64,000 nt of DNA from Candidatus Doudnabacteria bacterium (GTDB taxonomy: Bacteria > Patescibacteriota > Doudnabacteria > UBA920 > O2-02-FULL-48-8): assembly GCA_016186915.1 (NCBI GenBank), contig JACPKU010000006.1, positions 173,739 through 237,738 on the forward strand, written 5' to 3'. The notes below the pieces were generated by a model. It did not search any database, was not told where the DNA came from, and saw nothing but the letters and a program-made list of their open reading frames with translations. Made by a program: the position numbers and the translations under genes. This document shows, one piece after another, positions 4,295 through 40,187 of the stretch. Positions within the stretch are counted from its first letter, which is position 1. Every line of letters begins with the position of its first letter.

Positions 4295-4879
4295 TTATTT
4301 TTTTCTTTTTTTAAACTCTTCGAAAAGTTTGGACGCTGAAGCCACTTTGGCACCGGAGTACTTATTACTTTTCTTTTTATTATACGGGGTCAAGGCCGGG
4401 CTTGATAGTTCTTCAAACGTAAACGCGCATATCCTCATGCCTGGATAAAGTGCTACCGGCATTACGCCCAAATTCCCTAATTCCAAAGTAGGCTTACCGA
4501 TCCAGCCCGGATGAAACACTGAAGCCGTGCCGTGAACAATGATCCCCAATCGGCCAAGGCTGCTGCGCCCTTCCACGCGCCCCACCAGATCACTGGATAT
4601 TTGCAGAGTCTCTACTGTAGTCACTAGAGCAAAGTCACCAGGCTGCATGATGAAAGACTCTCCTTTCGGCACAACAATTTCTTTCATTAACTTGCTGGCG
4701 TCAATCTTACTTTTAAGATCAATGTACGGATGGCTGGAATGTTGAAAAACTCGAAACCGGTTGCCTAAATGCAAATCGATCATACAGGCATCGAGTTGTT
4801 CCTGATAGTTCGGTTTCGGGGTAATTTTTATTCGCCCGGCTTTTATCGCTTGTTTGATGTCTTGGTCTGAAAGAATCAT
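4295..4879 (-). CDS. dcd: dCTP deaminase
   Basis: The protein begins MILSDQDIKQAIKAGRIKITP...IDLHLG, which is the dCTP deaminase / dUTPase fold. It is 194 aa. Confidence 0.8.
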   Translation of the reverse strand: MILSDQDIKQAIKAGRIKITPKPNYQEQLDACMIDLHLGNRFRVFQHSSHPYIDLKSKIDASKLMKEIVVPKGESFIMQPGDFALVTTVETLQISSDLVGRVEGRSSLGRLGIIVHGTASVFHPGWIGKPTLELGNLGVMPVALYPGMRICAFTFEELSSPALTPYNKKKSNKYSGAKVASASKLFEEFKKRKK

Positions 4880-4909
4880 GTGCTTATTATTTGGCTACAA
4901 CTTATTCTA

Positions 4910-5635
4910 TCATACTTTTCGGCTTTTCATAAAACCTCGCAGGATCGGGTAGTAAAGGTCGTCTTTCAGAGGCATGACAGTTTTTCGATATGTGGCTTTG
5001 TTGGTGAACCGAGTTTTGAAGCCGCGGATAATCACAATTGGCGTTTGTTCAGATCCCTCGCCCATCAACAAAACCGCCATGGCTGCCAATGGCTCTACAA
5101 GATTAGCTACAGTAACCTTCAGTTTACGGCCAAAGATATCAGGAGTCTTTCGGTAATCCTTTAGAGGTTCAAAACCGAAAAACCCAATTGATATTCCGCT
5201 AATTCCCCTACGTAGAGGTGTAATATGACTATCAGTCGCGATTAGACCCAACTTCTTAAGGCCGTGTTTGCGCTTAAGATAAGACCAAAACTGTTTAAGA
5301 AGCTTATTTGTATCTTTAGGCCAGAGAATATAGTGGCCTTTGGCATTGCTCTCGTCGATCCCGGCAGAAGCTATGATCGTGTGATGCTTAATAGTGAACA
5401 CAAACTTGTGTTTACTATTTGTAGGATGCAAAGCCACGTACTCAGCCTCTGATTGAATCAGTTTATTCTTATCTACCTTCGTATCTATTTTAACAGTGCG
5501 GCCTTGGTGGATGGCCAGGATCTTGGACGTGATCACCGCGATATCCCCGTCTTTGAGCTTAAGTTTGTCTAAGATGTCGTAGATTTCGTCTTTTGGTGGC
5601 AGGACCTTACGAGTTTTAACTTTGATGAATTGCAT
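4910..5635 (-). CDS. CofE-like (F420-0:gamma-glutamyl ligase family) protein of unknown function
   Basis: It contains DGDIAVITSKILAIHQGR, ASAGIDESNA, LIATDSH and LLMGEGSEQTPIVIIRG, which are blocks typical of the CofE/FbiB N-terminal domain family. Confidence 0.55.
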   Translation of the reverse strand: MQFIKVKTRKVLPPKDEIYDILDKLKLKDGDIAVITSKILAIHQGRTVKIDTKVDKNKLIQSEAEYVALHPTNSKHKFVFTIKHHTIIASAGIDESNAKGHYILWPKDTNKLLKQFWSYLKRKHGLKKLGLIATDSHITPLRRGISGISIGFFGFEPLKDYRKTPDIFGRKLKVTVANLVEPLAAMAVLLMGEGSEQTPIVIIRGFKTRFTNKATYRKTVMPLKDDLYYPILRGFMKSRKV

Positions 5636-8535: not shown

Positions 8536-9060
8536 TTAGTAGTTTGTAGTGAGTAATGTTAACAGCGCCAGGATGATTAAGATAACTTCTAGTTTAAAGG
8601 TAAATGTTTTAAAGTATTTTATTAAGAACTCCATCCAGTGGGCGAAGAACGGCTTGCTCTCGATTACGATCCTGTTGTCCGTATTAAAACTTAAAGGTTT
8701 TTTGGAAAACGGATAAAGCCAGATCACTCCTTCAGCAGAAAACGTATCCAGAAAAAAATGAGACCAGGTGCCTAAGATAAATGCATACGCGATCAAGCTT
8801 GATTCAGGGAACAGAATAATCCAGCCAAGAAAAACTAGTAAGTATGCAAGCGGTGCGTGAGTTATATACAACCTATGATCCTCATCTGCCCTGGAGGTAA
8901 AGCTTTTGATTCTGATAAAAGTGACAAACCTATCCAGATCCGGTACAAAAGCAAACAGAGCTGTAAGAGCAAAAAACGTGGAGTTAGCTAAGCTAGAGCT
9001 TGATAAGGCTGTCAATCTTGCTACTAGATATCCACCAACCACGTGACCCGGAGGAAGCAT
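8536..9060 (-). CDS. YdjM-like membrane-bound metal-dependent hydrolase (DUF457) inserted between secE and nusG
   Basis: It is a multi-transmembrane protein with conserved His and Asp residues in the contexts PDLD and SHFFLD. Confidence 0.45.
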   Translation of the reverse strand: MLPPGHVVGGYLVARLTALSSSSLANSTFFALTALFAFVPDLDRFVTFIRIKSFTSRADEDHRLYITHAPLAYLLVFLGWIILFPESSLIAYAFILGTWSHFFLDTFSAEGVIWLYPFSKKPLSFNTDNRIVIESKPFFAHWMEFLIKYFKTFTFKLEVILIILALLTLLTTNY

Positions 9061-9065
9061 ATTTA

Positions 9066-9248
9066 TTATACAGACAAAAATTTAAATAATTCATTCAAGC
9101 CAAAATCAACGGCACCCAAAAACAAGGCTACGGCCAAAGAAAGCAGGATCACCGCCACAGTAATACGAATGGTTTCGCGTCTGGTGGGCCACACTACTTT
9201 TCTCAGTTCGCCCCACGCTTCTTTTACGAATTGTATCGGATTTGCCAT
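9066..9248 (-). CDS. secE: Preprotein translocase subunit SecE
   Basis: It is 60 aa and reads KEAWGELRKVVWPTRRETIRITVAVILLSL. Confidence 0.8.
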   Translation of the reverse strand: MANPIQFVKEAWGELRKVVWPTRRETIRITVAVILLSLAVALFLGAVDFGLNELFKFLSV

Positions 9249-9254
9249 AAAAGC

Positions 9255-9285
9255 TCGTTTTTTAAAACCCCTTTCGGGGCTTTGT
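9255..9285 (-). terminator. Intrinsic terminator after gyrB
   Basis: The minus strand reads AAAGCCCCGAAAGGGGUUUUAAAAAA. Confidence 0.5.
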
Positions 9286-9339
9286 ATCCAGCATTATATA
9301 ACGTTTTATTATTTTACGCAAGTTCATGCGCAAACAAGC

Positions 9340-11403
<2,064 letters not shown>

Positions 11404-11439
11404 TCAGTCCGTCCCGGACCCCGATCCGGGATCTAAAAA

Positions 11440-12579
11440 CTACCTAATTTCCGCGTTAAATTGCTTCTTTGTTTCTTCAATCAGCTTGTTTTGCAGAGGC
11501 TCGATTTCTTCGGTTTTGAGCGTCCTCTCAATACTGCGGTAAACCACTCGATAAGTGTAGCTTAATTGGTCCTTGCCGAACTTTTCTTCGTTCTCATACT
11601 TATCCAAAAGCCTGACTTCTTCCACCAAATCGCCGCCAATATCTCGAATTAAATCGAAATATATATTCGGCTCAAAGCCTTTATCCACGATGAAAGAAAT
11701 ATCACGCGTGATCGGAGGAAACTTGCTGACTTCCTGAAACTTTTGCCGAAGTTTCAATTGTTTAACGACGCGCGGATCTTGCGACCAGAGTAACCTGATA
11801 TCTGGGAGATCCATACTGGCAATCGCCAGCCTTTCTAAGCCAAACCCAAACGCCCAGCCATTCCACTTGGAAGAATCCACTCCCAATTTTTCCAAAACCG
11901 TGGCCTTAACCACGCCACTTCCCAAAACTTCGATCCATTTACCTGCTTTTTCTACTTCCAACTCTAGACTAGGATCCGTGTAGGGAAAGGTATCGAGGTT
12001 AAAACGGCATTTTACATTCTCACCGAAAACAGCTTTCGCGATGTCAGTTTCCACTTGTTTTAAATCTTGGGTCCCAATAACTCTTTGCGCTTTGGGCGCC
12101 AGAAACCAGCCGTCAATCTGATGAAACACGTTCATATGATGCCGGTCGATTTCGTCTTTACGGTAAACTTTGCCGAAACAAAACGCGCCGACTGGCCGCC
12201 CCGCGGCCATTCTTTTTTTTACTCCTTCGTTCCGCATATGGTAAAACCACATTACCGTGGTGTGGGTCCGCAAAATGTTAGTTGCGTTGACGTAATACGT
12301 ATCGGATTTTGATCGCACCGGGTGATCTATTGGAAAATCAAAGAGATCAAAGCTGACGTCCGTGGGGACAATTTCCGGCACCTGAATAGTGTCGAAGTCG
12401 TGAAAGTCTGGCAAAGCCAGAAATCGTTGGACCATTTCATAGATCGGGCTGCCTTTAGTCCGCGACAAATCAGGCATATTTAAAAACCGCAGCATGCGTT
12501 TAGCGTCTGCGTCTGTTCTTTTTTCAAGCTGTTTTTTCAATTTTACCTCTTCAGGTGATTCAATAACTATATTACTCAT
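11440..12579 (-). CDS. pheS: Phenylalanine--tRNA ligase alpha-type catalytic subunit with a C-terminal FDX-ACB anticodon-binding domain (mitochondrial FARS2-like architecture)
   Basis: Class II motifs are present (FPYTDPSLELEV, GWAFGFGLERLAIA). The C-terminal roughly 95 aa (FPPITRDISFIV...IGGDLVEEVRLLDKY...YTYRVVYRSIERTL) closely matches the FDX-ACB domain of monomeric mitochondrial PheRS. There is no N-terminal coiled coil. Confidence 0.8.
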   Translation of the reverse strand: MSNIVIESPEEVKLKKQLEKRTDADAKRMLRFLNMPDLSRTKGSPIYEMVQRFLALPDFHDFDTIQVPEIVPTDVSFDLFDFPIDHPVRSKSDTYYVNATNILRTHTTVMWFYHMRNEGVKKRMAAGRPVGAFCFGKVYRKDEIDRHHMNVFHQIDGWFLAPKAQRVIGTQDLKQVETDIAKAVFGENVKCRFNLDTFPYTDPSLELEVEKAGKWIEVLGSGVVKATVLEKLGVDSSKWNGWAFGFGLERLAIASMDLPDIRLLWSQDPRVVKQLKLRQKFQEVSKFPPITRDISFIVDKGFEPNIYFDLIRDIGGDLVEEVRLLDKYENEEKFGKDQLSYTYRVVYRSIERTLKTEEIEPLQNKLIEETKKQFNAEIR

Positions 12580-15165: not shown

Positions 15166-18129
15166 TTATCTCTCTAAGTCACGAAATTTTTGCTTACCCA
15201 GCTTATTCTTATCAAGTTCGGCAAAGGAATCATGCTTGATCGCCTCTACGATCTGCTCGATTACGCTAAGGATCTTGGCTTTGACTTTTTCGATGTCAGA
15301 TTCTGATCCAACAAATGATTCCGTGTCCCGCAAACTTGCCAAATACCAATATTTCAACGAGTCCACCTTTTCTTTAAATTCTTCCTGGGCCGCCCATTGG
15401 TAAATTAGTAATTGAGTCTTGTCATCGCTCGACAGCTTCTCTTTGACCTGTCCGGTCTTGTAGTCAACAATGCTGATGCTGCCGTTGTTGTTCAAATCCG
15501 CGCGGTCGATTTTGCCGGTGAATTTATAATCGCCCAGCTTCAGCTTAAATTTTTTCTCTAAAAATTTTATAGGCTTTGGGTCTTCCTTGTACCGTTCATA
15601 GAAATTATCCAGCATTTTAGCACCAAGCTTGCGATAGTTTTCTTTTTGAATCGAGTCCTCAAACCAATCATCAACCCAGGAATCCTCATAAAGCTTGAAT
15701 AAAACTTTCTTGTCAGGAATAATTATTTTCCCTGGGCTTTTGCCGAATAAATCCGACTGTTCGGTCTGGTTCGCTTGTTGCGTGGCCAGAAGAAACTTTT
15801 CCAAGGTTTTATGAATAGTAATTCCAAAAGACAGTTGCGCTTCGCCGGGCATCGGCAGATGATAAAGATACTTATATTTATATTCCAGCGGAGAGAACAA
15901 AAAAGAGGCGATTTGAGAGTAAGAAAATGTGTCGGGGACTGGAAGGTTAAAGGCTATAGGTTTTAGGTTATCGGTTGCTTTGCTTTTGTCAGAGAAAAAC
16001 ACTTTGCCCACGGGAGCTGGCTTGGCTGGTGTTTGCTCTAATTTTGCCTCAACTAAAAATTGAGACGGCTTTTTTGTGCTCACTCCTCCATAGTCATTCG
16101 CCCAAGTCAGGTACAAATGCCTTTTGGCGCGCGTGATCGCCACATAAAACAGCCGGCGCTCTTCCATTAAATGCGCGTCGCCTTCTGGCAAAATTTCTCT
16201 AATCAGTGTTTCAGGAATTTCAATCGCGTCTCTTCTTTCCCGGGTGGGAAACCTTTGATCCACCATATTCACTAGGAAAACCGTGTCGAACTCCAGCCCT
16301 TTGGCGGAATGAACAGTCATCACCTTGACCGCCTCCGGCCCCAATTCAGGATTGAAACTAAGCATTCCTTGCTCCCCCGCCTCTTGTTCCAAATCAATTT
16401 GGTTCAAAAAGCTTTTGACTGTCTTTGATTTACTTTCGCTTTCAAATTCCAAAGTCTTCTTATATATTTGCTCAAGCAGGTTCCTGTTTTCCTGGTTCGC
16501 CGCAGAATCCTGCTTTAAACTGTCAACCAAGCCCAGGTCAGTCACCACCCTCACAAAAAATTCCGAAACTGGCGCCGCCAGGCTCAAACGAGAATGTTTT
16601 TCGAGCCGAGCTAGCAATTCGGATATCTTTTTTCGGCTTTCCTGGCTGACCGCAACAAGAGCCGGATCTTTAAGGACCTCTATGATATTATGCGCTTTTC
16701 TCTTCGCTGTTTGTGTCACTTGCACCAGGTCATTGTGCTCCAATTGAAACTTCGGCATAGTCAAAACTCGATAAACATCGGCGTTTTCAAAATGATTGTC
16801 GACTATTCGCAAATACGACAAGACATCCAGAATAAACGGCTTGCGATACAGCCCCCGATTGGCCACGTAAATGTAAGGAATATTCAGACGGTTCAACTCT
16901 ACCAAAAACGGCTCGGCGTGGTCATTGGCCCGAACCAGGATGGCAAAATCATTGTAGGTCACGTCCTGTTTTGATTTAAGTTCCTCAATCTTATTCGCCA
17001 CGAGGCTCGCCTCCTCCGGCAAATTTTGGGCGTGCAGAACTTTGATCTCGCCGGCGACGCGTTCTTTATTTGCGACTAACTTCTTACTTATCTTCAATTT
17101 CGATTCCAGGCGCTCTGGGTTATTCAGCTGAATAAAATTATACGCCAGATCAAGAATTTCCTGACTGGAGCGATAATTTTCTGTGAGCGCGACTTCTGCG
17201 GAAGACGGATAATCTTCTTTGAACTTCAAAATGTTAGACACGGAGGCGCCGCGGAATTTATAAATGGATTGGTCATCGTCCCCCACCACTGTGATGTTGT
17301 TTTCCGGTTTTGCCAAAAGCTTCACCAACTCGTATTGGGAAAGATCGGTGTCTTGAAACTCATCGACCAAAATGTATCTGTATTTTTTCTGATAGTGCGT
17401 GAGAATCTTTGGCCGCGTGCGAAAAAGTTTCAGCGCGTAATTAATCAAATCGCCAAAATCCAGATAGCTATTGTCTAAAAGCAACTTTTGGTATTTATAA
17501 TAAGCATTGGCCACTTCGTTAATCCTAGCGGCCTCATTCTCGTCTTCTTCACTGGCCGCTGTTTTCTTCTTTTTTGATTTTGCTTTCTTCTTAATTTCTG
17601 CTGAATCGAATTTTAGCCTCAAATTTTCCGCATATTTCAAATAATCTTCCGGACTGATCTCTTCCCCTTTAGCTTTGTTAAAATGTTTCAACAAAGTATG
17701 GATAAACTTGTTCGGATTGCCGATAGGCTTATAATAATCCAGATCAAACTCGTGAAGGTGTTTTTTCACTAAGATCCAAGCCTCGGTCTCGGTGATCACT
17801 TTGAAATCTCCGGGCAGCCCAATGTCTAAAGGGTGTTGCTGCAAAATGCGTTGCGCGAACGAATGAAAAGTCGAAATATTAATGTCCACATAACCTAAAG
17901 GCGTGAGTAAATCCACCCTTTCTTCCATTTCAGTCGCCGCTTTTTCGGTAAATGTTAAAGCCAAAATTTCATCTGGCTTGGCAAGCTTCTGTTCAAGCAA
18001 GTAAGCAATACGCCTGGTAATTACCGTGGTTTTTCCCGTTCCAGCGCCGGCAATAATTAAAAGCGGCCCATTACCAAAAGTGACGGCTTCTTCTTGCTCT
18101 TTATTTATTCCCTTAAGTATCTGCGCCAT
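15166..18129 (-). CDS. UvrD/PcrA-family helicase fused to a C-terminal RecB/Cas4-type PD-(D/E)xK nuclease (AddA-like)
   Basis: It has a Walker A (AGAGTGKTTV), UvrD motifs, and a C-terminal GKIDRADLNN...IVDYKTG. The start is taken at MAQILKGINKEQ, since the further-upstream part of the track ORF looks non-coding. Confidence 0.75.
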   Translation of the reverse strand: MAQILKGINKEQEEAVTFGNGPLLIIAGAGTGKTTVITRRIAYLLEQKLAKPDEILALTFTEKAATEMEERVDLLTPLGYVDINISTFHSFAQRILQQHPLDIGLPGDFKVITETEAWILVKKHLHEFDLDYYKPIGNPNKFIHTLLKHFNKAKGEEISPEDYLKYAENLRLKFDSAEIKKKAKSKKKKTAASEEDENEAARINEVANAYYKYQKLLLDNSYLDFGDLINYALKLFRTRPKILTHYQKKYRYILVDEFQDTDLSQYELVKLLAKPENNITVVGDDDQSIYKFRGASVSNILKFKEDYPSSAEVALTENYRSSQEILDLAYNFIQLNNPERLESKLKISKKLVANKERVAGEIKVLHAQNLPEEASLVANKIEELKSKQDVTYNDFAILVRANDHAEPFLVELNRLNIPYIYVANRGLYRKPFILDVLSYLRIVDNHFENADVYRVLTMPKFQLEHNDLVQVTQTAKRKAHNIIEVLKDPALVAVSQESRKKISELLARLEKHSRLSLAAPVSEFFVRVVTDLGLVDSLKQDSAANQENRNLLEQIYKKTLEFESESKSKTVKSFLNQIDLEQEAGEQGMLSFNPELGPEAVKVMTVHSAKGLEFDTVFLVNMVDQRFPTRERRDAIEIPETLIREILPEGDAHLMEERRLFYVAITRAKRHLYLTWANDYGGVSTKKPSQFLVEAKLEQTPAKPAPVGKVFFSDKSKATDNLKPIAFNLPVPDTFSYSQIASFLFSPLEYKYKYLYHLPMPGEAQLSFGITIHKTLEKFLLATQQANQTEQSDLFGKSPGKIIIPDKKVLFKLYEDSWVDDWFEDSIQKENYRKLGAKMLDNFYERYKEDPKPIKFLEKKFKLKLGDYKFTGKIDRADLNNNGSISIVDYKTGQVKEKLSSDDKTQLLIYQWAAQEEFKEKVDSLKYWYLASLRDTESFVGSESDIEKVKAKILSVIEQIVEAIKHDSFAELDKNKLGKQKFRDLER

Positions 18130-18420
18130 ACAGGCATTATAGCATTGCGCATGGTCCTGATGAAATATAAATAAAAAAATATAAATAAAATATAAAAAGC
18201 GTACGTTGACCATTTTCAGCGATCGCTTTTTTTACTCAACGACAACGGAAATAAAATAAACAGCCTTTGGGCATAAACTTAATTAAGCGCCAAAAATATT
18301 ATCCCGGTTAAAACTGTGACCATCGTCACAACAAGCAATACCTCGAAAAAGGTATATCCCCGATAAATTTTGTTTTTTGGTTTCTGTTTGTTCACAAACG
18401 TGTGTATAAATATTATATAA

Positions 18421-18455
18421 AAAAAGAGGCGGTGAAGCAAGTGCTTGCCATCGCC
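18421..18455 (-). terminator. Intrinsic terminator closing the GC-rich islet
   Basis: The minus strand reads GGCGAUGGCAAGCACUUGCUUCACCGCCUCUUUUU. Confidence 0.6.
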
Positions 18456-18473
18456 TCGGGTGCTGACACGCAG

Positions 18474-19563
18474 TCAAGGAGCCTTCACGGTTTTAGGTCC
18501 TTGATCGCGCCGGTCGGCGAAAGGACCCGAAGGCCCCTCGTAGCCCACGTTCCAGCCGTTGCCAGACGGATTTGGCACCCTGGTAGGTGCCTCATCCGGA
18601 ACTTGATGCTCCGGACCACGTCGGTACAAGACACCGCCGCGCCCAGTAAGGTGGGCAAAATACACGTCGTCGCTCTCGTCGCTCATGCTTCCTCCAGTAA
18701 GAATTAAGGTGCCTCGCGCAGGTAGGATCAACGCGCATGATCGCTCACTGGCGGTCTGTGCGCGTAATGCAGCAGGAGGGCGAACTGCATCCTCTAAGGC
18801 GCGGCTCGCAGGGCCAGCAACCGTGAGAGGGCGACCGGAAGGTCGACTTTGACAGATCCTTATTCACCACGCGAGACACCCACCCAAACTATACGCCCAA
18901 ACAGCCAGCCGGTCAAAGCACTCCGGTGCGCTGTAGCGAACGCCGAACCTCTCCGTTCTTGACCCAAGCCCCGACGAACTGCGTCCAAATCAGTCGATCG
19001 GTGTTCGAGGTAAGGTCAAAAACCTTTCTCGCGAGATAGATCCTGAAGTCGAGACTGGGCCCTTCTGACTGTCCCAGTTCCATCAGCAGCAAGCCGTAGT
19101 CCTTCGGGTCGCACACGACGAGCACGTCACGCCAGTTTTTGGCTGCAGCCCGGAGCAGACTCGGTCCGCCGATGTCGATTTCCTCCACCAGATCGTCGAA
19201 ACCAATGGCTTCCCTCGCGGACTGCTCGAACTGATAGAGGTTAACCACGACGATGTCGTACGGATGGAGGCCATGTTGCTCGAGCGAGTGCATATCCGAC
19301 GCGTTCGCTCTCCGAGCGAGAATTCCGGCGAACACGGCCGGATGGAGCGTCTTTACACGTCCATCCATCATCTCGGGGAAACCCGTGACGTCGCTGATAT
19401 GCACGACTGGCACGCCGCCGGCTTCGATAACACGCGCCGTGCCGCCGGTAGACACCAGCTCATAGCCACGGCCCAGAAGGGCACGCGCCAACTCCACGAT
19501 TCCGGTCTTGTCCGTCACACTGATCAAAGCACTGGGCATCACTCCTCCTTTGGAAAAAGCCAA
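18474..19563 (-). pseudogene. purH: GC-rich (about 60%) remnant of purH: an intact IMP cyclohydrolase (MGS-like) N-terminal domain, with the AICAR transformylase part mostly deleted or frameshifted
   Basis: ORF 18913-19563 reads ALISVTDKTGIVELA...STGGTAR...GFPEMMDGRVKTLHP...VVVNLYQFE...IDIGGPSLLRAAAKN and then stops after the linker. A downstream frame (18474-18731 and its extension) weakly resembles the PurH C-terminus. The GC content is far above the genome background. Confidence 0.6.
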
Positions 19564-19640
19564 ACCTTGGCGGTCGGGCCTTTGTGTTGTGTCTTCAGTT
19601 TACTGCTTCCGTGATAAATTGACAAGCTTGAAAGATAGTC

Positions 19641-19656
19641 CCGCGTCCTAGGACGC
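19641..19656. repeat. Perfect 16 bp palindrome CGCGTCCTAGGACGCG between the tRNA-Arg gene and the purH remnant
   Basis: It is directly visible in the sequence. It may be a terminator or processing hairpin after the tRNA. Confidence 0.5.
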
Positions 19657-19673
19657 GAAACTATTTGCCTAGT

Positions 19674-19750
19674 TGGCGTCCCCAGAAGGACTCGAACCTT
19701 CGACCTTCTCCTCCGGAGGGAGACGCTCTAATCCACTGAGCTATGGGGAC
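19674..19750 (-). tRNA. tRNA-Arg (anticodon CCG), CCA encoded
   Basis: The reverse complement is GTCCCCATAGCTCAGTGGATTAGAGCGTCTCCCTCCGGAGGAGAAGGTCGAAGGTTCGAGTCCTTCTGGGGACGCCA, which folds as a cloverleaf. Confidence 0.85.
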
Positions 19751-19752
19751 TC

Positions 19753-19782
19753 ATACATTCATACACGACTGTATGAATGTAT
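19753..19782. repeat. Palindromic hairpin repeat, copy 3 (12 bp arms, ATACATTCATAC-ACGACT-GTATGAATGTAT)
   Basis: It overlaps the stop codon of the NYN gene and abuts the tRNA-Arg 5' end. Its loop is inverted relative to copy 1. Confidence 0.7.
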
Positions 19783-36339: not shown

Positions 36340-38565
36340 TCATTTTTTTAATATTGCCAAGAATGCTTCCTGCGGTATATCCACTGAACCGACCCGCTTC
36401 AGCCGCTTTTTGCCTTTCTTCTGTTTTTCCAGAAGTTTCATTTTTCTGGTCACATCGCCGCCATAGAGTTTGGCTGTCACGTCTTTGCGCATGGCGGGTA
36501 TGGTTTCGCGAGCGACTATTTTGGATCCGATCGCGGCCTGCAGCGCCACTTCAAACTGCTGTCGGGGAATCACAGTCTTAAGCTTTTCTACCAGCGACCG
36601 CCCTTCTGATTCAGCCACTTCCTTATGGACGATCAACGACAGCGCGTCCACTTTTTCTTGTGCCACCAGAATGTCCAGTTTAACCAGCTCCGCCTCCCTT
36701 AGATCCAAAAGTTCGTAATTCAGAGAAGCGTAGCCAGAGCTGATACTTTTAAGTTTATCATAAAAATCAATAATGATGTTGGCCAGCGGAATTTCAGCGG
36801 TTATCATCACTCGATCCTCTCTGACGTAGTCAGTATTTTTATAAATCCCACGGCGCGCGGTAATCAGTTCCATCACTCCCCCAATGTATTTTTGTGGAAT
36901 CAAAATTTCCACCAGCACCCATGGTTCCTCCACGCTTTCTATGTGTGACGGATCAGGCAATTCGGCCGGGGTGTGGACGATTTTCGAATCCCCATTTTTT
37001 AAATTCACCTTGTATTCCACGGAAGGAGCGGTCAGAATTAAATCGAGATCGTACTCGCGCGACAGCCGTTCCTGCACAATGTCCATATGCAAAAGCCCCA
37101 AAAATCCCGCTCGGAATCCAAACCCGAGAGCGGGTAAATTTTCTGCCTCAAACTCGAGTGCCGCGTCATTGAGCTTGAGTTTGTCCATTGCGTCTCGAAG
37201 CAGCGGGTAGTCGTCGCCGCTGGTCGGAAAGATGCTCGCATAAACCATGGGTTTGACCTGTTTATACCCGGGCAGTGCTTTCGCTGTATTGCTTGATTGG
37301 AGCGTGGTTACTGTATCTCCTACCCGCGCTTTGCGCACTTCTCGCAAGCCGGTCACAATATAGCCGACCTCTCCTGTTGCCAGCTCAATCGCTGGAAACA
37401 ATTTTGGTTTAAAGAAACCAACTTCCAGAGCCTGCGACTGCGTTTTGGTGCCCAACATTTGGATTTTTTCATTTTTTTTCAACTGTCCGTCAACAATTCT
37501 GACAAATATCACCACCCCGCGGTGTTGATCGTACTTTGAATCAAAAATCAAAGCCCGTAGCGGCTGATCCTCTTTTCCGTTCGGTGAGGGAATCCGAGCC
37601 ACTATCTGCTGTAAGATCTCCTCTACGCCCTCGCCGGTTTTGCCGGAAGCAAACAATATGTCCTCTTTCTTAAACCCAAAAACATTAACGATTTCTGCTG
37701 CCGTCTTTTCGCGCTCGGCATTTGGCAGGTCGATTTTATTAACCACGGGAATAATCTTTAATTTATGCTGCTGGGCCAAATGCACGTTGGCAATTGTCTG
37801 CGCTTCTATGCCTTGCGTGGAGTCAACGACCAAAATCGCTCCTTCACAAGCGGCAAGCGAACGGGAAACTTCGTAAGTAAAATCTACGTGTCCGGGGGTA
37901 TCTATTAAATTCAATACGTACACAGACTCAGGCGGACTGGACGCGGACTGGTCGGAATTTATTAGCCTTTTAATTTCAGCTCCATCAGGTCCAAAATTTA
38001 CAAGTAATGCCAGTTTATGCGGGGTTCCCTTTAAATAATTCCATAATTGTGCTTCTTCTTTTCTACCAATAAGCGGCAATGCTTTGATCTCTAAAATTAT
38101 TTTATTATCAACTAGAAAATCTGGACGGTAAACGCCAACCTTCGCGCCCTTATAAGAAACCGTAATCTCTTTTTCCTGAACAAAGGGTATACTTCTCTGT
38201 TTAAGCTCCAGAGCCAATGCTTTTTGATAGACGTTTTCCTTATGACCGCTTCCAAGCTGTTTCCTAACCTCAAAAATCGCACCTCTAACACTATAACTCA
38301 GGTCTTCATAGAGCAGTCCTTTGTCTGCATTAGTCTGTTTGCTGTCAGCGTTAGTCTGCGGCGGTGTCCACTCCATCCGAACTGGCTGCAGCTTAATAGT
38401 AATCCCCCGCTCGCGCTCCAAATCCATGGTGTCCAAAAGCTGGTCCTTCATCTCCCGTTTGGCCAAAGTGTGCGTCACTTCCAAAAGCCGATCCGCCAGC
38501 GTGGACTTGCCGTGATCAATGTGGGCAATGATGCAAAAATTACGGATTTTTTCTGCTGCAGACAT
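36340..38565 (-). CDS. lepA: Elongation factor 4 (LepA) carrying an in-frame, roughly 140 aa GxxExxY (PD-(D/E)xK superfamily) domain insertion in the G domain
   Basis: LepA blocks are present (IIAHIDHGKSTLADRLL, DTPGHVDFTYEVSRS, the C-terminal LepA_C KMKLLEKQKKGKKRLK). Between GITIKLQPVRMEW and LNLIDTPGH lies an insert reading GAIFEVRKQLGSGHKENVYQKALALEL...YRPDFLVDNKIILEIKA...AQLWNYLK. The start is taken at MSAAEKIRNF, with the RBS GAGGG. Confidence 0.8.
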   Translation of the reverse strand: MSAAEKIRNFCIIAHIDHGKSTLADRLLEVTHTLAKREMKDQLLDTMDLERERGITIKLQPVRMEWTPPQTNADSKQTNADKGLLYEDLSYSVRGAIFEVRKQLGSGHKENVYQKALALELKQRSIPFVQEKEITVSYKGAKVGVYRPDFLVDNKIILEIKALPLIGRKEEAQLWNYLKGTPHKLALLVNFGPDGAEIKRLINSDQSASSPPESVYVLNLIDTPGHVDFTYEVSRSLAACEGAILVVDSTQGIEAQTIANVHLAQQHKLKIIPVVNKIDLPNAEREKTAAEIVNVFGFKKEDILFASGKTGEGVEEILQQIVARIPSPNGKEDQPLRALIFDSKYDQHRGVVIFVRIVDGQLKKNEKIQMLGTKTQSQALEVGFFKPKLFPAIELATGEVGYIVTGLREVRKARVGDTVTTLQSSNTAKALPGYKQVKPMVYASIFPTSGDDYPLLRDAMDKLKLNDAALEFEAENLPALGFGFRAGFLGLLHMDIVQERLSREYDLDLILTAPSVEYKVNLKNGDSKIVHTPAELPDPSHIESVEEPWVLVEILIPQKYIGGVMELITARRGIYKNTDYVREDRVMITAEIPLANIIIDFYDKLKSISSGYASLNYELLDLREAELVKLDILVAQEKVDALSLIVHKEVAESEGRSLVEKLKTVIPRQQFEVALQAAIGSKIVARETIPAMRKDVTAKLYGGDVTRKMKLLEKQKKGKKRLKRVGSVDIPQEAFLAILKK
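37915..38367 (-). other. Inserted GxxExxY nuclease-fold domain within lepA
   Basis: It shows the signature G-H-K-E-N-V-Y and the downstream D...E.K-like blocks of the PDDEXK_3/GxxExxY family. The LepA reading frame continues uninterrupted. Confidence 0.7.
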
Positions 38566-38567
38566 GG

Positions 38568-40187
38568 TTATTCCCTCGTATACCAAGCACTATTAATATT
38601 ACGAGAAAATTTGATGAGCATTGATTTAAGAAGGTTAACCAGACCATGCGTTTCCGCCAGCCCGCTAAACCAGGTTATTCCCAAATAAATCACAAGACCG
38701 ACGAGTGACGCTCCAGCGGCTTGGGTAAACACCCCGACATAGGTCTGCATGTTAACCAGCGGAGCAATCAAATACAAAGATACATAAGCGCCAGCAGCAG
38801 ACAGAGCCGATCCAATCACAATCTTTAAACTATTGATGATCAAGTATTCGTCATGGATGTGACCGATTTTTTTATGCAACTCCATAACTAGCATAACTAA
38901 GTGAATAATACTGGTCAGGGAAAACGCGATCGCCATGCCAGGAATGCCGAATCTTCTGACAAAGAAATAAGTGGCGAAAACATTTACTACGATAACAATA
39001 AGACCAATGATTACCGGGATAGCGGTATTGTGCCGGGCATAAAACGCTCGAGTGAACAAAGGGGCCAGCGCCTGGGCAAACAGGGAGACCACAAATAATC
39101 CGAGTGTTAAAGACACCACGCGCGTATCCGCAAAAGTAAAGCTGGTATTTTCTCCAATTCCCAACACCAACCTGACTATCTGGGCACGCAGAATAAGCAT
39201 CAATACGGACAGCGGAATGATAAAATATAAAATCTGAATCGTGGTTCTGGCGAGAACATCCTTAAATTTTTGATCGTCGCGCTGGTTGAAGTATTCCGAC
39301 AAGGTTGGAAAAACCGCAATGGCGGCCGAGATGGCAAAAATGCTTAAAAACACCGCCTGCAAATTGTTAGCGTAATAAAAGACCGACAACGAGCCGGTGC
39401 CTAAGAACGATCCAAAAATCGTGGCCACCAAAAGGGTCACCTGGCTGGTGCCCATGGAAAAAATCCTTGGCCAATACAATTTCCAAAATTGGATGAATCC
39501 GGAGTCACGCAGCGCCAGCACCAAGGAATAACGGAAGCCCATAAAAAACACTTGCGGTAGTTGAATGAGAAAATGCAGGAGAGCTCCGATAACCACGCCG
39601 ATGGGCAAACCTATTGGTCCCATGATCGGATACAACACCAGCACGCCAAATATAATGGACAAGTTATAAACCAAAGGCGCCGCGGCAACCACTGCAAATT
39701 TTTTATAGGTATGGAGAATGCTGGAAGTGATCGAGGAAAGGGACAGAAACAGAGGAGAAAAAAGCAAAATCTTGGTAAAACTTCTGGTCAGTTCATAAGC
39801 TTCACCAGTAAATCCCGGGGCAATAACCCTAACCAGCGGATCGATAAATAAAAGCGCGAACAAGGATATGCCAATCACTCCAAAAATCGTGCTGTTCGCA
39901 ATACCTGACGCGATCCGAAAAGCCCGGTCTCGATCTTTAAACAAGTAGTCGGAAAATACCGGAATAAATGCCACTGACACGGTGCCCAAAAAAAGCAGAT
40001 TAAAAATAAAGTCCGGAATCCGGAAAGCCGCGAAATAGGCGTCGATCAAAACACTGGTCCCGAACCGGTTGGAAAACACCGCGTCCCGAATAAGCCCCGA
40101 GAATTTGGCCAAGAGCGAAAAAACCGCGATGATCACGGTTGCTTTGGTAAGCGAATCAGATTTAGTATTCAACAACCTGGCAATCAT
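38568..40187 (-). CDS. murJ: Lipid II flippase MurJ (MviN)
   Basis: It is a 539 aa protein with 14 transmembrane segments. Its N-terminus reads ...ATVIIAVFSLLAKFSGLIRDAVFSNRFGTS. Confidence 0.8.
   Translation of the reverse strand: MIARLLNTKSDSLTKATVIIAVFSLLAKFSGLIRDAVFSNRFGTSVLIDAYFAAFRIPDFIFNLLFLGTVSVAFIPVFSDYLFKDRDRAFRIASGIANSTIFGVIGISLFALLFIDPLVRVIAPGFTGEAYELTRSFTKILLFSPLFLSLSSITSSILHTYKKFAVVAAAPLVYNLSIIFGVLVLYPIMGPIGLPIGVVIGALLHFLIQLPQVFFMGFRYSLVLALRDSGFIQFWKLYWPRIFSMGTSQVTLLVATIFGSFLGTGSLSVFYYANNLQAVFLSIFAISAAIAVFPTLSEYFNQRDDQKFKDVLARTTIQILYFIIPLSVLMLILRAQIVRLVLGIGENTSFTFADTRVVSLTLGLFVVSLFAQALAPLFTRAFYARHNTAIPVIIGLIVIVVNVFATYFFVRRFGIPGMAIAFSLTSIIHLVMLVMELHKKIGHIHDEYLIINSLKIVIGSALSAAGAYVSLYLIAPLVNMQTYVGVFTQAAGASLVGLVIYLGITWFSGLAETHGLVNLLKSMLIKFSRNINSAWYTRE

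Follow-up and report, generated by a model that had tools for sequence, protein, structure and literature searches.

A GC-rich slot beside tRNA-Arg in a Doudnabacteria genome holds an intact, stand-alone purJ

We analysed a GC-rich islet (18421-19665) in a 64,000-nucleotide stretch of a Candidatus Doudnabacteria genome (contig JACPKU010000006.1, positions 173,739 to 237,738; hereafter the window). Its only recognisable gene is a stand-alone purJ, which encodes a PurH-type inosine monophosphate (IMP) cyclohydrolase and is not a pseudogene. The islet probably represents the form that a hypervariable, GC-rich slot between tRNA-Arg(CCG) and uvrD takes in this genome, holding an intact purJ that is maintained by selection. 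Its origin would ultimately be foreign, and not the recent capture and decay of a host fragment that an earlier, sequence-only reading had proposed. Feature coordinates are collected in Table 1; related loci carry our own labels (L003, P0020 and so on).

The open reading frame (ORF) encodes 208 aa from ATG 19539, and an in-frame upstream TTG at 19563 would extend it to 216 aa (18913-19563, minus strand). An NCBI protein of Candidatus Doudnabacteria bacterium, annotated as IMP cyclohydrolase, matches the 208-aa form at 100% identity, which bears out the earlier supposition that the organism belongs to the Candidate Phyla Radiation (CPR). Pfam matches on the longer form are to MGS (4.7e-21) and to positions 1-58 of AICARFT_IMPCHas; these positions lie in the cyclohydrolase half of PurH, so they represent no piece of the transformylase. 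The NCBIfam purH match is restricted to profile positions 3-195 of ~510, and the protein fails as a bifunctional PurH, scoring 232-240 bits against equivalog cut-offs of 528 and 402 (TIGR00355 and NF002049, respectively). PurH/ATIC structures in the PDB align over residues 3-189, with E values of 4e-47 to 1e-41. The protein has the MGS-like fold and the C-terminal IMPCH sub-domain that make up PurH residues ~1-199, and the intact IMP cyclohydrolase domain described by the sequence-only reading is indeed present. An alignment with relatives shows no variation in the SVxDK, STGGT, GRVKTLHP, NLYxF, IDIGG and RAAAKN blocks. The roles of individual residues would be those described for ATIC. The N-terminal 190 residues of bifunctional PurH/ATIC align end to end with the window protein, whereas the C-terminal domain of ~320 aa, the 5-aminoimidazole-4-carboxamide ribonucleotide (AICAR) transformylase (AICARFT), is wholly absent. 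The stop codon lies ahead of the LRYGENPHQ block, in the linker between the domains. Six other Doudnabacteria PurJ end there too, making seven in all, and the window gene thus corresponds to the whole first cistron of a split purH whose second cistron is missing. A further single-domain PurH-N homologue of similar length is ForH (PDB 6nko, 216 aa, E 2e-28), which we take to be a formycin biosynthesis protein; the window protein lies in no secondary-metabolite context and has far greater similarity to bona fide PurH than to ForH.

The sequence-only reading had seen a frameshifted or deleted remnant of the AICARFT domain downstream of the cyclohydrolase. We found none in the tract that follows purJ: Pfam returned nothing in its three minus-strand frames, tblastn with an AICARFT protein gave a best E of only 0.29, and a hidden Markov model of 53 full-length PurH, run with --max in six frames, gave negative scores only. 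The whole 487-bp tract (18426-18912, 60.8% GC) showed no similarity by tblastx or blastn to any of the 115 fetched loci. A visual likeness between LILTGGSMSDE and QPGGSxRD, considered as a trace of AICARFT, scored -6.4 bits and was rejected. The same holds for a 70/85-aa ORF considered as a conserved gene, which matches itself alone among 5.8 billion proteins. For the minus strand of 18412-18912, none of 100 dinucleotide shuffles folds as well (z -2.97), and there are no homologues for covariation. The tract is orphan sequence.

Selection on the gene could be gauged from L003, a 1054-bp contig of 58% GC from another run of the same sequencing series, with 83% nucleotide and 79-81% amino-acid identity to the window. 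The two ORFs stop at 208/209 aa and have in common a P to Q change in one conserved block (the window PurJ reads SVTDK and NLYQF). The ratio of nonsynonymous to synonymous divergence (dN/dS, Nei-Gojobori) between them amounts to 0.21 across the ORF and to 0.15 within codons 1-170, with dS at ~0.6-0.75. The shared stop and the dN/dS of 0.15-0.21 indicate that purifying selection acted on the single-domain gene before the window and L003 split and has done so ever since. The frame is uninterrupted and the motifs are intact, so that the decayed purH of the sequence-only reading turns out to be a complete IMPCH cistron ending in the linker. A truly decayed copy looks different: in L020, a 186-aa relic at the same locus, IDIGG and AAKN are destroyed and homology is recognisable only at E 1e-8 in pairwise comparison. 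A recent, possibly host-derived (for example Actinomycetota) purH fragment decaying as a pseudogene is thus very unlikely. It could account for the strongly atypical composition, the missing AICARFT half and the GC-rich orphan tract downstream, but it is at odds with the dN/dS, the intact catalytic motifs, the contrast with L020 and an ORF that stops at the natural end of the purJ cistron. The truncated form, being common to a variant of 83% nucleotide identity, is also older than dS ~0.6.

The islet is a strong compositional outlier adjoining a tRNA gene. As the sequence-only reading had noted, a GC-rich segment stands in lower-GC surroundings, with 58.3% GC at 18421-19665 against 44.8% in the remainder of the window (z ~5 over all 1245-bp windows); the highest value of any other 1245-bp window is 51.5%, and the islet core (18426-19596) has 59.4%. 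In a 200-bp profile, GC rises from 32-42% to 57-64% at ~18400 and drops back at ~19600, and the neighbouring intergenic DNA (18214-18420) is at 33%. The comparisons of codon and tetranucleotide usage suggested with that reading set the islet apart too. GC at third codon positions (GC3) in purJ is 0.69, compared with 0.495 ± 0.049 in 39 other ORFs of the window (z 4.0), GC1 and GC2 are 0.65 and 0.42 vs about 0.50 and 0.30, and the tetranucleotide distance of the islet from the window norm reaches z 8.3. The adjoining tRNA-Arg(CCG), also recognised earlier, has its 3' end facing the islet. Structured RNA was considered as the cause of the GC richness and rejected, with Rfam finding the tRNA only, at both gathering and E<=1 thresholds.

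Using the NYN protein as anchor, we gathered the corresponding loci from 17 named genomes, mostly labelled Doudnabacteria. All have the order RmuC-NYN-tRNA-Arg(CCG)-slot-UvrD, with a slot that ranges from 28 bp (L012) to 3.3 kb among the fetched genomes and is empty in L012 and L016. Most of these genomes have a GC-rich slot, and in every genome checked purJ and purV have a GC3 of 0.62-0.74 vs 0.41-0.56 for the flanking NYN, RmuC and UvrD genes. The spacing between NYN and purJ is 240 nt in both the window and the P0020 contig. Like the window, the purJ-purV and purJ-purO-purV cassettes (L009, L022, L034 and P0020) lie 3' of tRNA-Arg(CCG) and 5' of uvrD, with a cistron end in the linker and high GC3; compared with them, the window has no second cistron and its protein shares only 45-58% identity. 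Like tRNA-adjacent genomic islands, the islet is atypical in composition and varies in presence among relatives at the 3' end of the same tRNA. Unlike these, the islet measures only ~1.2 kb, lacks an integrase and mobility genes, and its flanks do not directly repeat the tRNA 3' end.

These loci speak against a recent capture specific to this genome, as the same slot holds purH-family genes in many Doudnabacteria, the nearest outsider is at most 66% identical and the truncation predates the L003 split. The sequence-only reading had named same-lineage homologues of the same GC content as what would tell against capture. Homologues of the same lineage exist at the same locus, but they too are GC-rich compared with their own genomes. 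The relatives' slot holds a split purH, purJ then purV, in some cases with a purO-type cyclohydrolase or a cytidine deaminase. The window, the L003 variant and L019 have purJ alone, and the window purJ is equipped with its own promoter-like element, leader hairpin, strong Shine-Dalgarno (SD) site and distal terminator. In the reading that we favour, the second cistron, purV, would have been lost from a two-cistron ancestor, leaving what we infer to be a working cyclohydrolase of PurJ/PurH2 type that converts FAICAR (5-formamidoimidazole-4-carboxamide ribonucleotide) to IMP. The foreign acquisition would predate the window/L003 split and form part of a lineage-wide pattern. The common locus and the common fission of the gene argue for one old acquisition, after which vertical descent and differential loss would have followed.

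A joining of a fragment from a high-GC organism to a Doudnabacteria contig during assembly could produce the sharp GC steps at both edges, and all Logan contigs end at 19781 and two near 18185-18195. We nevertheless regard a chimera as extremely improbable. Per-run Logan assemblies from at least 4 SRA runs reproduce the islet at 100% identity, joined to uvrD and tRNA-Arg. One Logan contig spans 10297-19781 of the window and another runs from inside purJ to ~8.5 kb, both linking the islet to uvrD; none crosses 19781, a point that contigs reach through the tRNA. The NYN-tRNA-Arg adjacency is kept in 16 independent genomes. The 100% identity in per-run assemblies and this conserved adjacency make a chimera very unlikely, and the misassembly that had been raised with the sequence-only reading is effectively excluded. 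The islet edges, moreover, fall at a terminator and a promoter, not at arbitrary breakpoints. The contig stop at 19781 lies within a hairpin immediately 5' of tRNA-Arg (19750-19785), the arms of which measure 16 nt, and the two contigs ending at ~18185-18195 do so in an AT-rich repeat tract before uvrD. Such stops might arise from drops in coverage, or from variants within the population that flank the cassette on both sides.

The origin of the cassette was approached through its homologues. Window PurJ is 81% identical to that of L003, 58% to P0020 and 48-51% to other Doudnabacteria PurJ, and 60-63% identical to fused PurH on metagenome contigs of 63-70% GC. Among 5.8 billion proteins, none from outside the Doudnabacteria exceeds 66% identity. 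The closest outside relatives come from high-GC (63-70%) bacteria, so an ultimately horizontal, foreign origin of the cassette is plausible; the horizontal origin proposed earlier stands to this extent, but the direct evidence of host capture that went with it does not, and no donor can be named. A PurH group of 71-75% GC carries an ILADRR...HRRQL signature that appears to resemble Mycobacterium PurH, and is presumably of actinobacterial type; it is only 46-50% identical to window PurJ, which disfavours an actinobacterial-type donor and with it both the Actinomycetota-type host and the recent decaying capture of the sequence-only reading. Short PurH on ENA contigs (ERZ250395xx; L004, L116, L117; ~64% GC) were considered as natural stand-alone forms and set aside as likely assembly artefacts, because those contigs show many fragmented genes (nuo in pieces) and a frameshifted purH. 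A rough two-state amelioration estimate, which assumes no selection on GC3, would place the import before the window/L003 split and after the Doudnabacteria radiation.

Neighbour-joining with bootstrap over 186 IMPCH columns gave the PurH-domain phylogeny that had been called for. It unites window and L003 (bootstrap 100), but leaves the backbone unresolved (bootstrap at most 20%), with P0020 placed among high-GC sequences. Several observations weigh against the reading that we favour. The tree contains no single Doudnabacteria PurJ clade, as window+L003, L009+L034+L019 (bootstrap 74) and P0020 fall apart, and each Doudnabacteria PurJ is nearer to high-GC PurH than to other Doudnabacteria PurJ. 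The slot purV are of two very different, unrelated types. A single old acquisition should show ameliorated GC3. In addition, no purV, purP, purO or purH-like gene is found elsewhere within the 64-kb window.

It is possible, and we put this forward tentatively, that the site 3' of tRNA-Arg(CCG) is instead a hotspot of recurrent capture or replacement, where GC-rich purH-family genes (purJ, purV, purO) were imported repeatedly from high-GC bacteria, possibly hosts, and where the window purJ was later trimmed to its first domain; alternatively, a local process may raise GC. Besides the scattered tree positions and the two purV types, such capture would fit a GC3 that is not ameliorated in any lineage though flanking orthologues are only 27-88% identical, the GC richness of orphan and relic slot sequence, the 74% identity of P0020 to PurH on 65-66% GC soil contigs (at most 59% to other Doudnabacteria PurJ), and a slot content that varies down to nothing in L012 and L016. 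Against it, every Doudnabacteria copy shows one and the same rare fission, with the stop in the linker, whereas its high-GC relatives are fused; an integrase, an att-like duplicate of the tRNA 3' end and any plasmid or phage link are all absent; the tree backbone has bootstrap of at most 20%; and a search space of 5.8 billion proteins offers no donor above 66% identity. If recurrent capture is true, the window purJ would be one retained import and slot sequence a usable tracer of host identity.

PurJ identity among Doudnabacteria (45-56%) falls inside the range of other syntenic orthologues (27-88%). This commensurate divergence, together with the same locus and fission across the class, would suit a native, vertically inherited purJ in a slot whose GC is kept high by a local process, such as GC-biased gene conversion at a recombination-prone tRNA flank or mRNA selection, with no transfer at all. 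A local force would also explain why non-coding and relic slot sequence is GC-rich. We consider this unlikely, since a GC-raising force of this kind would be hypothetical, the amino-acid composition reflected in GC1 and GC2 fits a high-GC organism, and the slot is empty in some genomes. CPR bacteria also generally lack purine synthesis genes.

Expression signals surround the window purJ, and the strong SD site and the clean intrinsic terminator of the sequence-only reading were both found. The sequence AAAGGAGG, with a GGAGG site, lies 4 nt upstream of ATG 19539. The terminator-like hairpin coincides exactly with the left GC boundary of the islet, though it stands ~490 nt past the purJ stop; a simple terminator scan missed it because of an internal loop. 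In L003, both hexamers of the promoter candidate are identical, and a hairpin occupies the same leader position with a different stem sequence. The strong hairpin directly 3' of tRNA-Arg, within which the L003 contig starts, is probably the end of the tRNA transcript.

Table 1 Features of the window and contents of the corresponding slot in related genomes
Sequence	Feature	Position	Strand	Remarks
Window	UvrD/PcrA-like helicase with PDDEXK_1 nuclease domain	15166..18213	minus	slot flank opposite NYN, conserved
Window	intrinsic-terminator-like hairpin, GAGGCG...CGCCUC + U7	18419..18457	minus	fold -17.2 kcal/mol, z -2.3
Window	GC-rich (60.7%) tract, purJ stop to terminator	18458..18912	minus	no recognisable homologue
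Window	orphan ORF, 70 aa, SD-preceded	18474-18686	minus	in the tract between purJ stop and terminator
Window	purJ, stand-alone PurH-type IMP cyclohydrolase	18913..19539	minus	208 aa + stop; Pfam, NCBIfam and PDB matches, motifs, dN/dS
Window	SD region AAAGGAGGAGUG	19540..19551	minus	directly before ATG 19539
Window	leader hairpin, then U-run	19555..19583	minus	between promoter-like site and SD; RNA folds; terminator-like scan 19571-19559
Window	sigma-70-like promoter candidate, TTGTCA-17-TAAACT	19597..19625	minus	9/12 matches
Window	strong 13-bp hairpin directly 3' of tRNA-Arg	19635..19664	minus	-19.3 kcal/mol, z -4.75
Window	tRNA-Arg(CCG)	19674..19750	minus	3' end towards islet; native gene, after NYN in 16/17 related genomes
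Window	NYN-domain gene	19782..20297	minus	conserved slot flank, 80-88% aa identity across Doudnabacteria
L009	slot: cytidine/dCMP deaminase, then purJ, then purV			purV in another frame
L034	slot: small ORF, purJ, PurO-type cyclohydrolase, purV	purJ 9276-9938; PurO-type 10144-10827; purV 10843-11799		
L022	slot: purJ + very divergent AICARFT gene			
L035	slot: fused, divergent PurH-like protein			567 aa
L019	slot: purJ alone			
L020	slot: purJ relic			
P0020	RmuC-N_methyl-NYN-purJ-AICARFT-UvrD			351-kb contig (JGI); purJ 213 aa, AICARFT 332 aa

We found no att-like direct repeat of the tRNA 3' end in 18100-19850 and no integrase or recombinase in the islet, the content of which is purJ and the orphan ORF only. 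A plasmid or phage origin was rejected, as the only matches were to the generic purH core at 66-69% identity. Between the islet and uvrD, a mini-ORF (18279-18440, minus strand, 39-53 aa) has an N-terminal methylation motif of prepilin type, RGYTFFEVLLVV (PF07963, E 0.008), followed by a stop, and may be a truncated type IV pilin-like gene; a 177-aa N_methyl gene lies nearby on the P0020 contig. The rest of the 64-kb window holds ordinary CPR housekeeping genes, including gyrB, pheS, ATP synthase, murJ, ftsW, dnaX and a CCA-adding enzyme. Among the other genes, a LepA/EF4 homologue (36340-38586, minus strand, 748 aa) has a PDDEXK_3 nuclease domain (PD-(D/E)XK, 1.9e-33) inserted at residues 95-207, within the GTPase domain.

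The slots of other genomes hold further genes. In L034, a PurO-type ('archaeal') IMP cyclohydrolase (PF07826, E 3.6e-42) lies between the split purH halves, so that two non-homologous cyclohydrolases share one cassette in a Patescibacteria genome. In L009, an ORF of the cytidine/dCMP deaminase family (4407-4892, minus strand; PF00383, 6.7e-9; 57% GC) separates tRNA-Arg from purJ. Genes of nucleotide metabolism seem to accumulate in the slot. L022 (9332-10351) and L035 (6159-7862) contain an AICARFT-like domain that has diverged strongly, with 27-34% identity to all other PurH/PurV and 34% between the two (neighbour-joining bootstrap 100), a type distinct from the canonical purV of L009 and L034. 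Small SD-preceded ORFs occur with or without purJ in L003 (~740-1040), L005 (~2720-2940), L006 (~8880-9100) and L034 (~8975-9181), sharing only the N-terminal motif G-x-DAW-x-Q-[SM]-A, which was not found in the window. The 70-aa orphan ORF of the window likewise begins with MSD... after GGAGGA, and homology to these small ORFs is not demonstrable. In L011, the slot encodes a protein with a PadR / PaaX-middle (Cas2-like) domain (4830-5309) instead of purine genes, at an ordinary GC content of 37%.

The most likely role of the window protein is the cyclisation of FAICAR to IMP by a monomeric, PurH2-type enzyme. Homology, motif conservation and the dN/dS of 0.21 point to this catalysis, and a precedent is AF1811 of Archaeoglobus fulgidus, an unfused PurH2 with in vitro activity that also complements E. 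coli (PMC6797443). Like PurJ/PurH2 in general, the window protein consists of the MGS-like IMPCH domain alone, at ~200 aa, with catalytic motifs kept and no AICARFT fusion. Since stand-alone purJ/PurH2 is already known and biochemically validated, the gene itself is not new. In a survey of 1,266 bacterial genomes, purJ was present in 50, nearly always with purV (44/50) or purH, and split purJ/purV and purV/purO combinations amount to ~5% of bacterial genomes (PMC6486802). Unlike these described cases, the window purJ has no purV adjoining it or elsewhere in the window and sits in a compositionally foreign islet, and its host is a CPR bacterium in which the rest of the pathway is probably lacking. 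We found no paper on purH in Doudnabacteria or CPR.

Thus, a CPR lineage that is presumably unable to make purines de novo keeps a foreign-looking module for late IMP synthesis at one fixed locus, where it occurs in several configurations, including purJ alone, under purifying selection. The lasting GC excess of the slot across deeply diverged genomes would reflect either repeated gene import or a local GC-biased process. The maintenance of this module suggests that these cells benefit from salvaging AICAR or FAICAR, late purine intermediates that a partner organism may supply.

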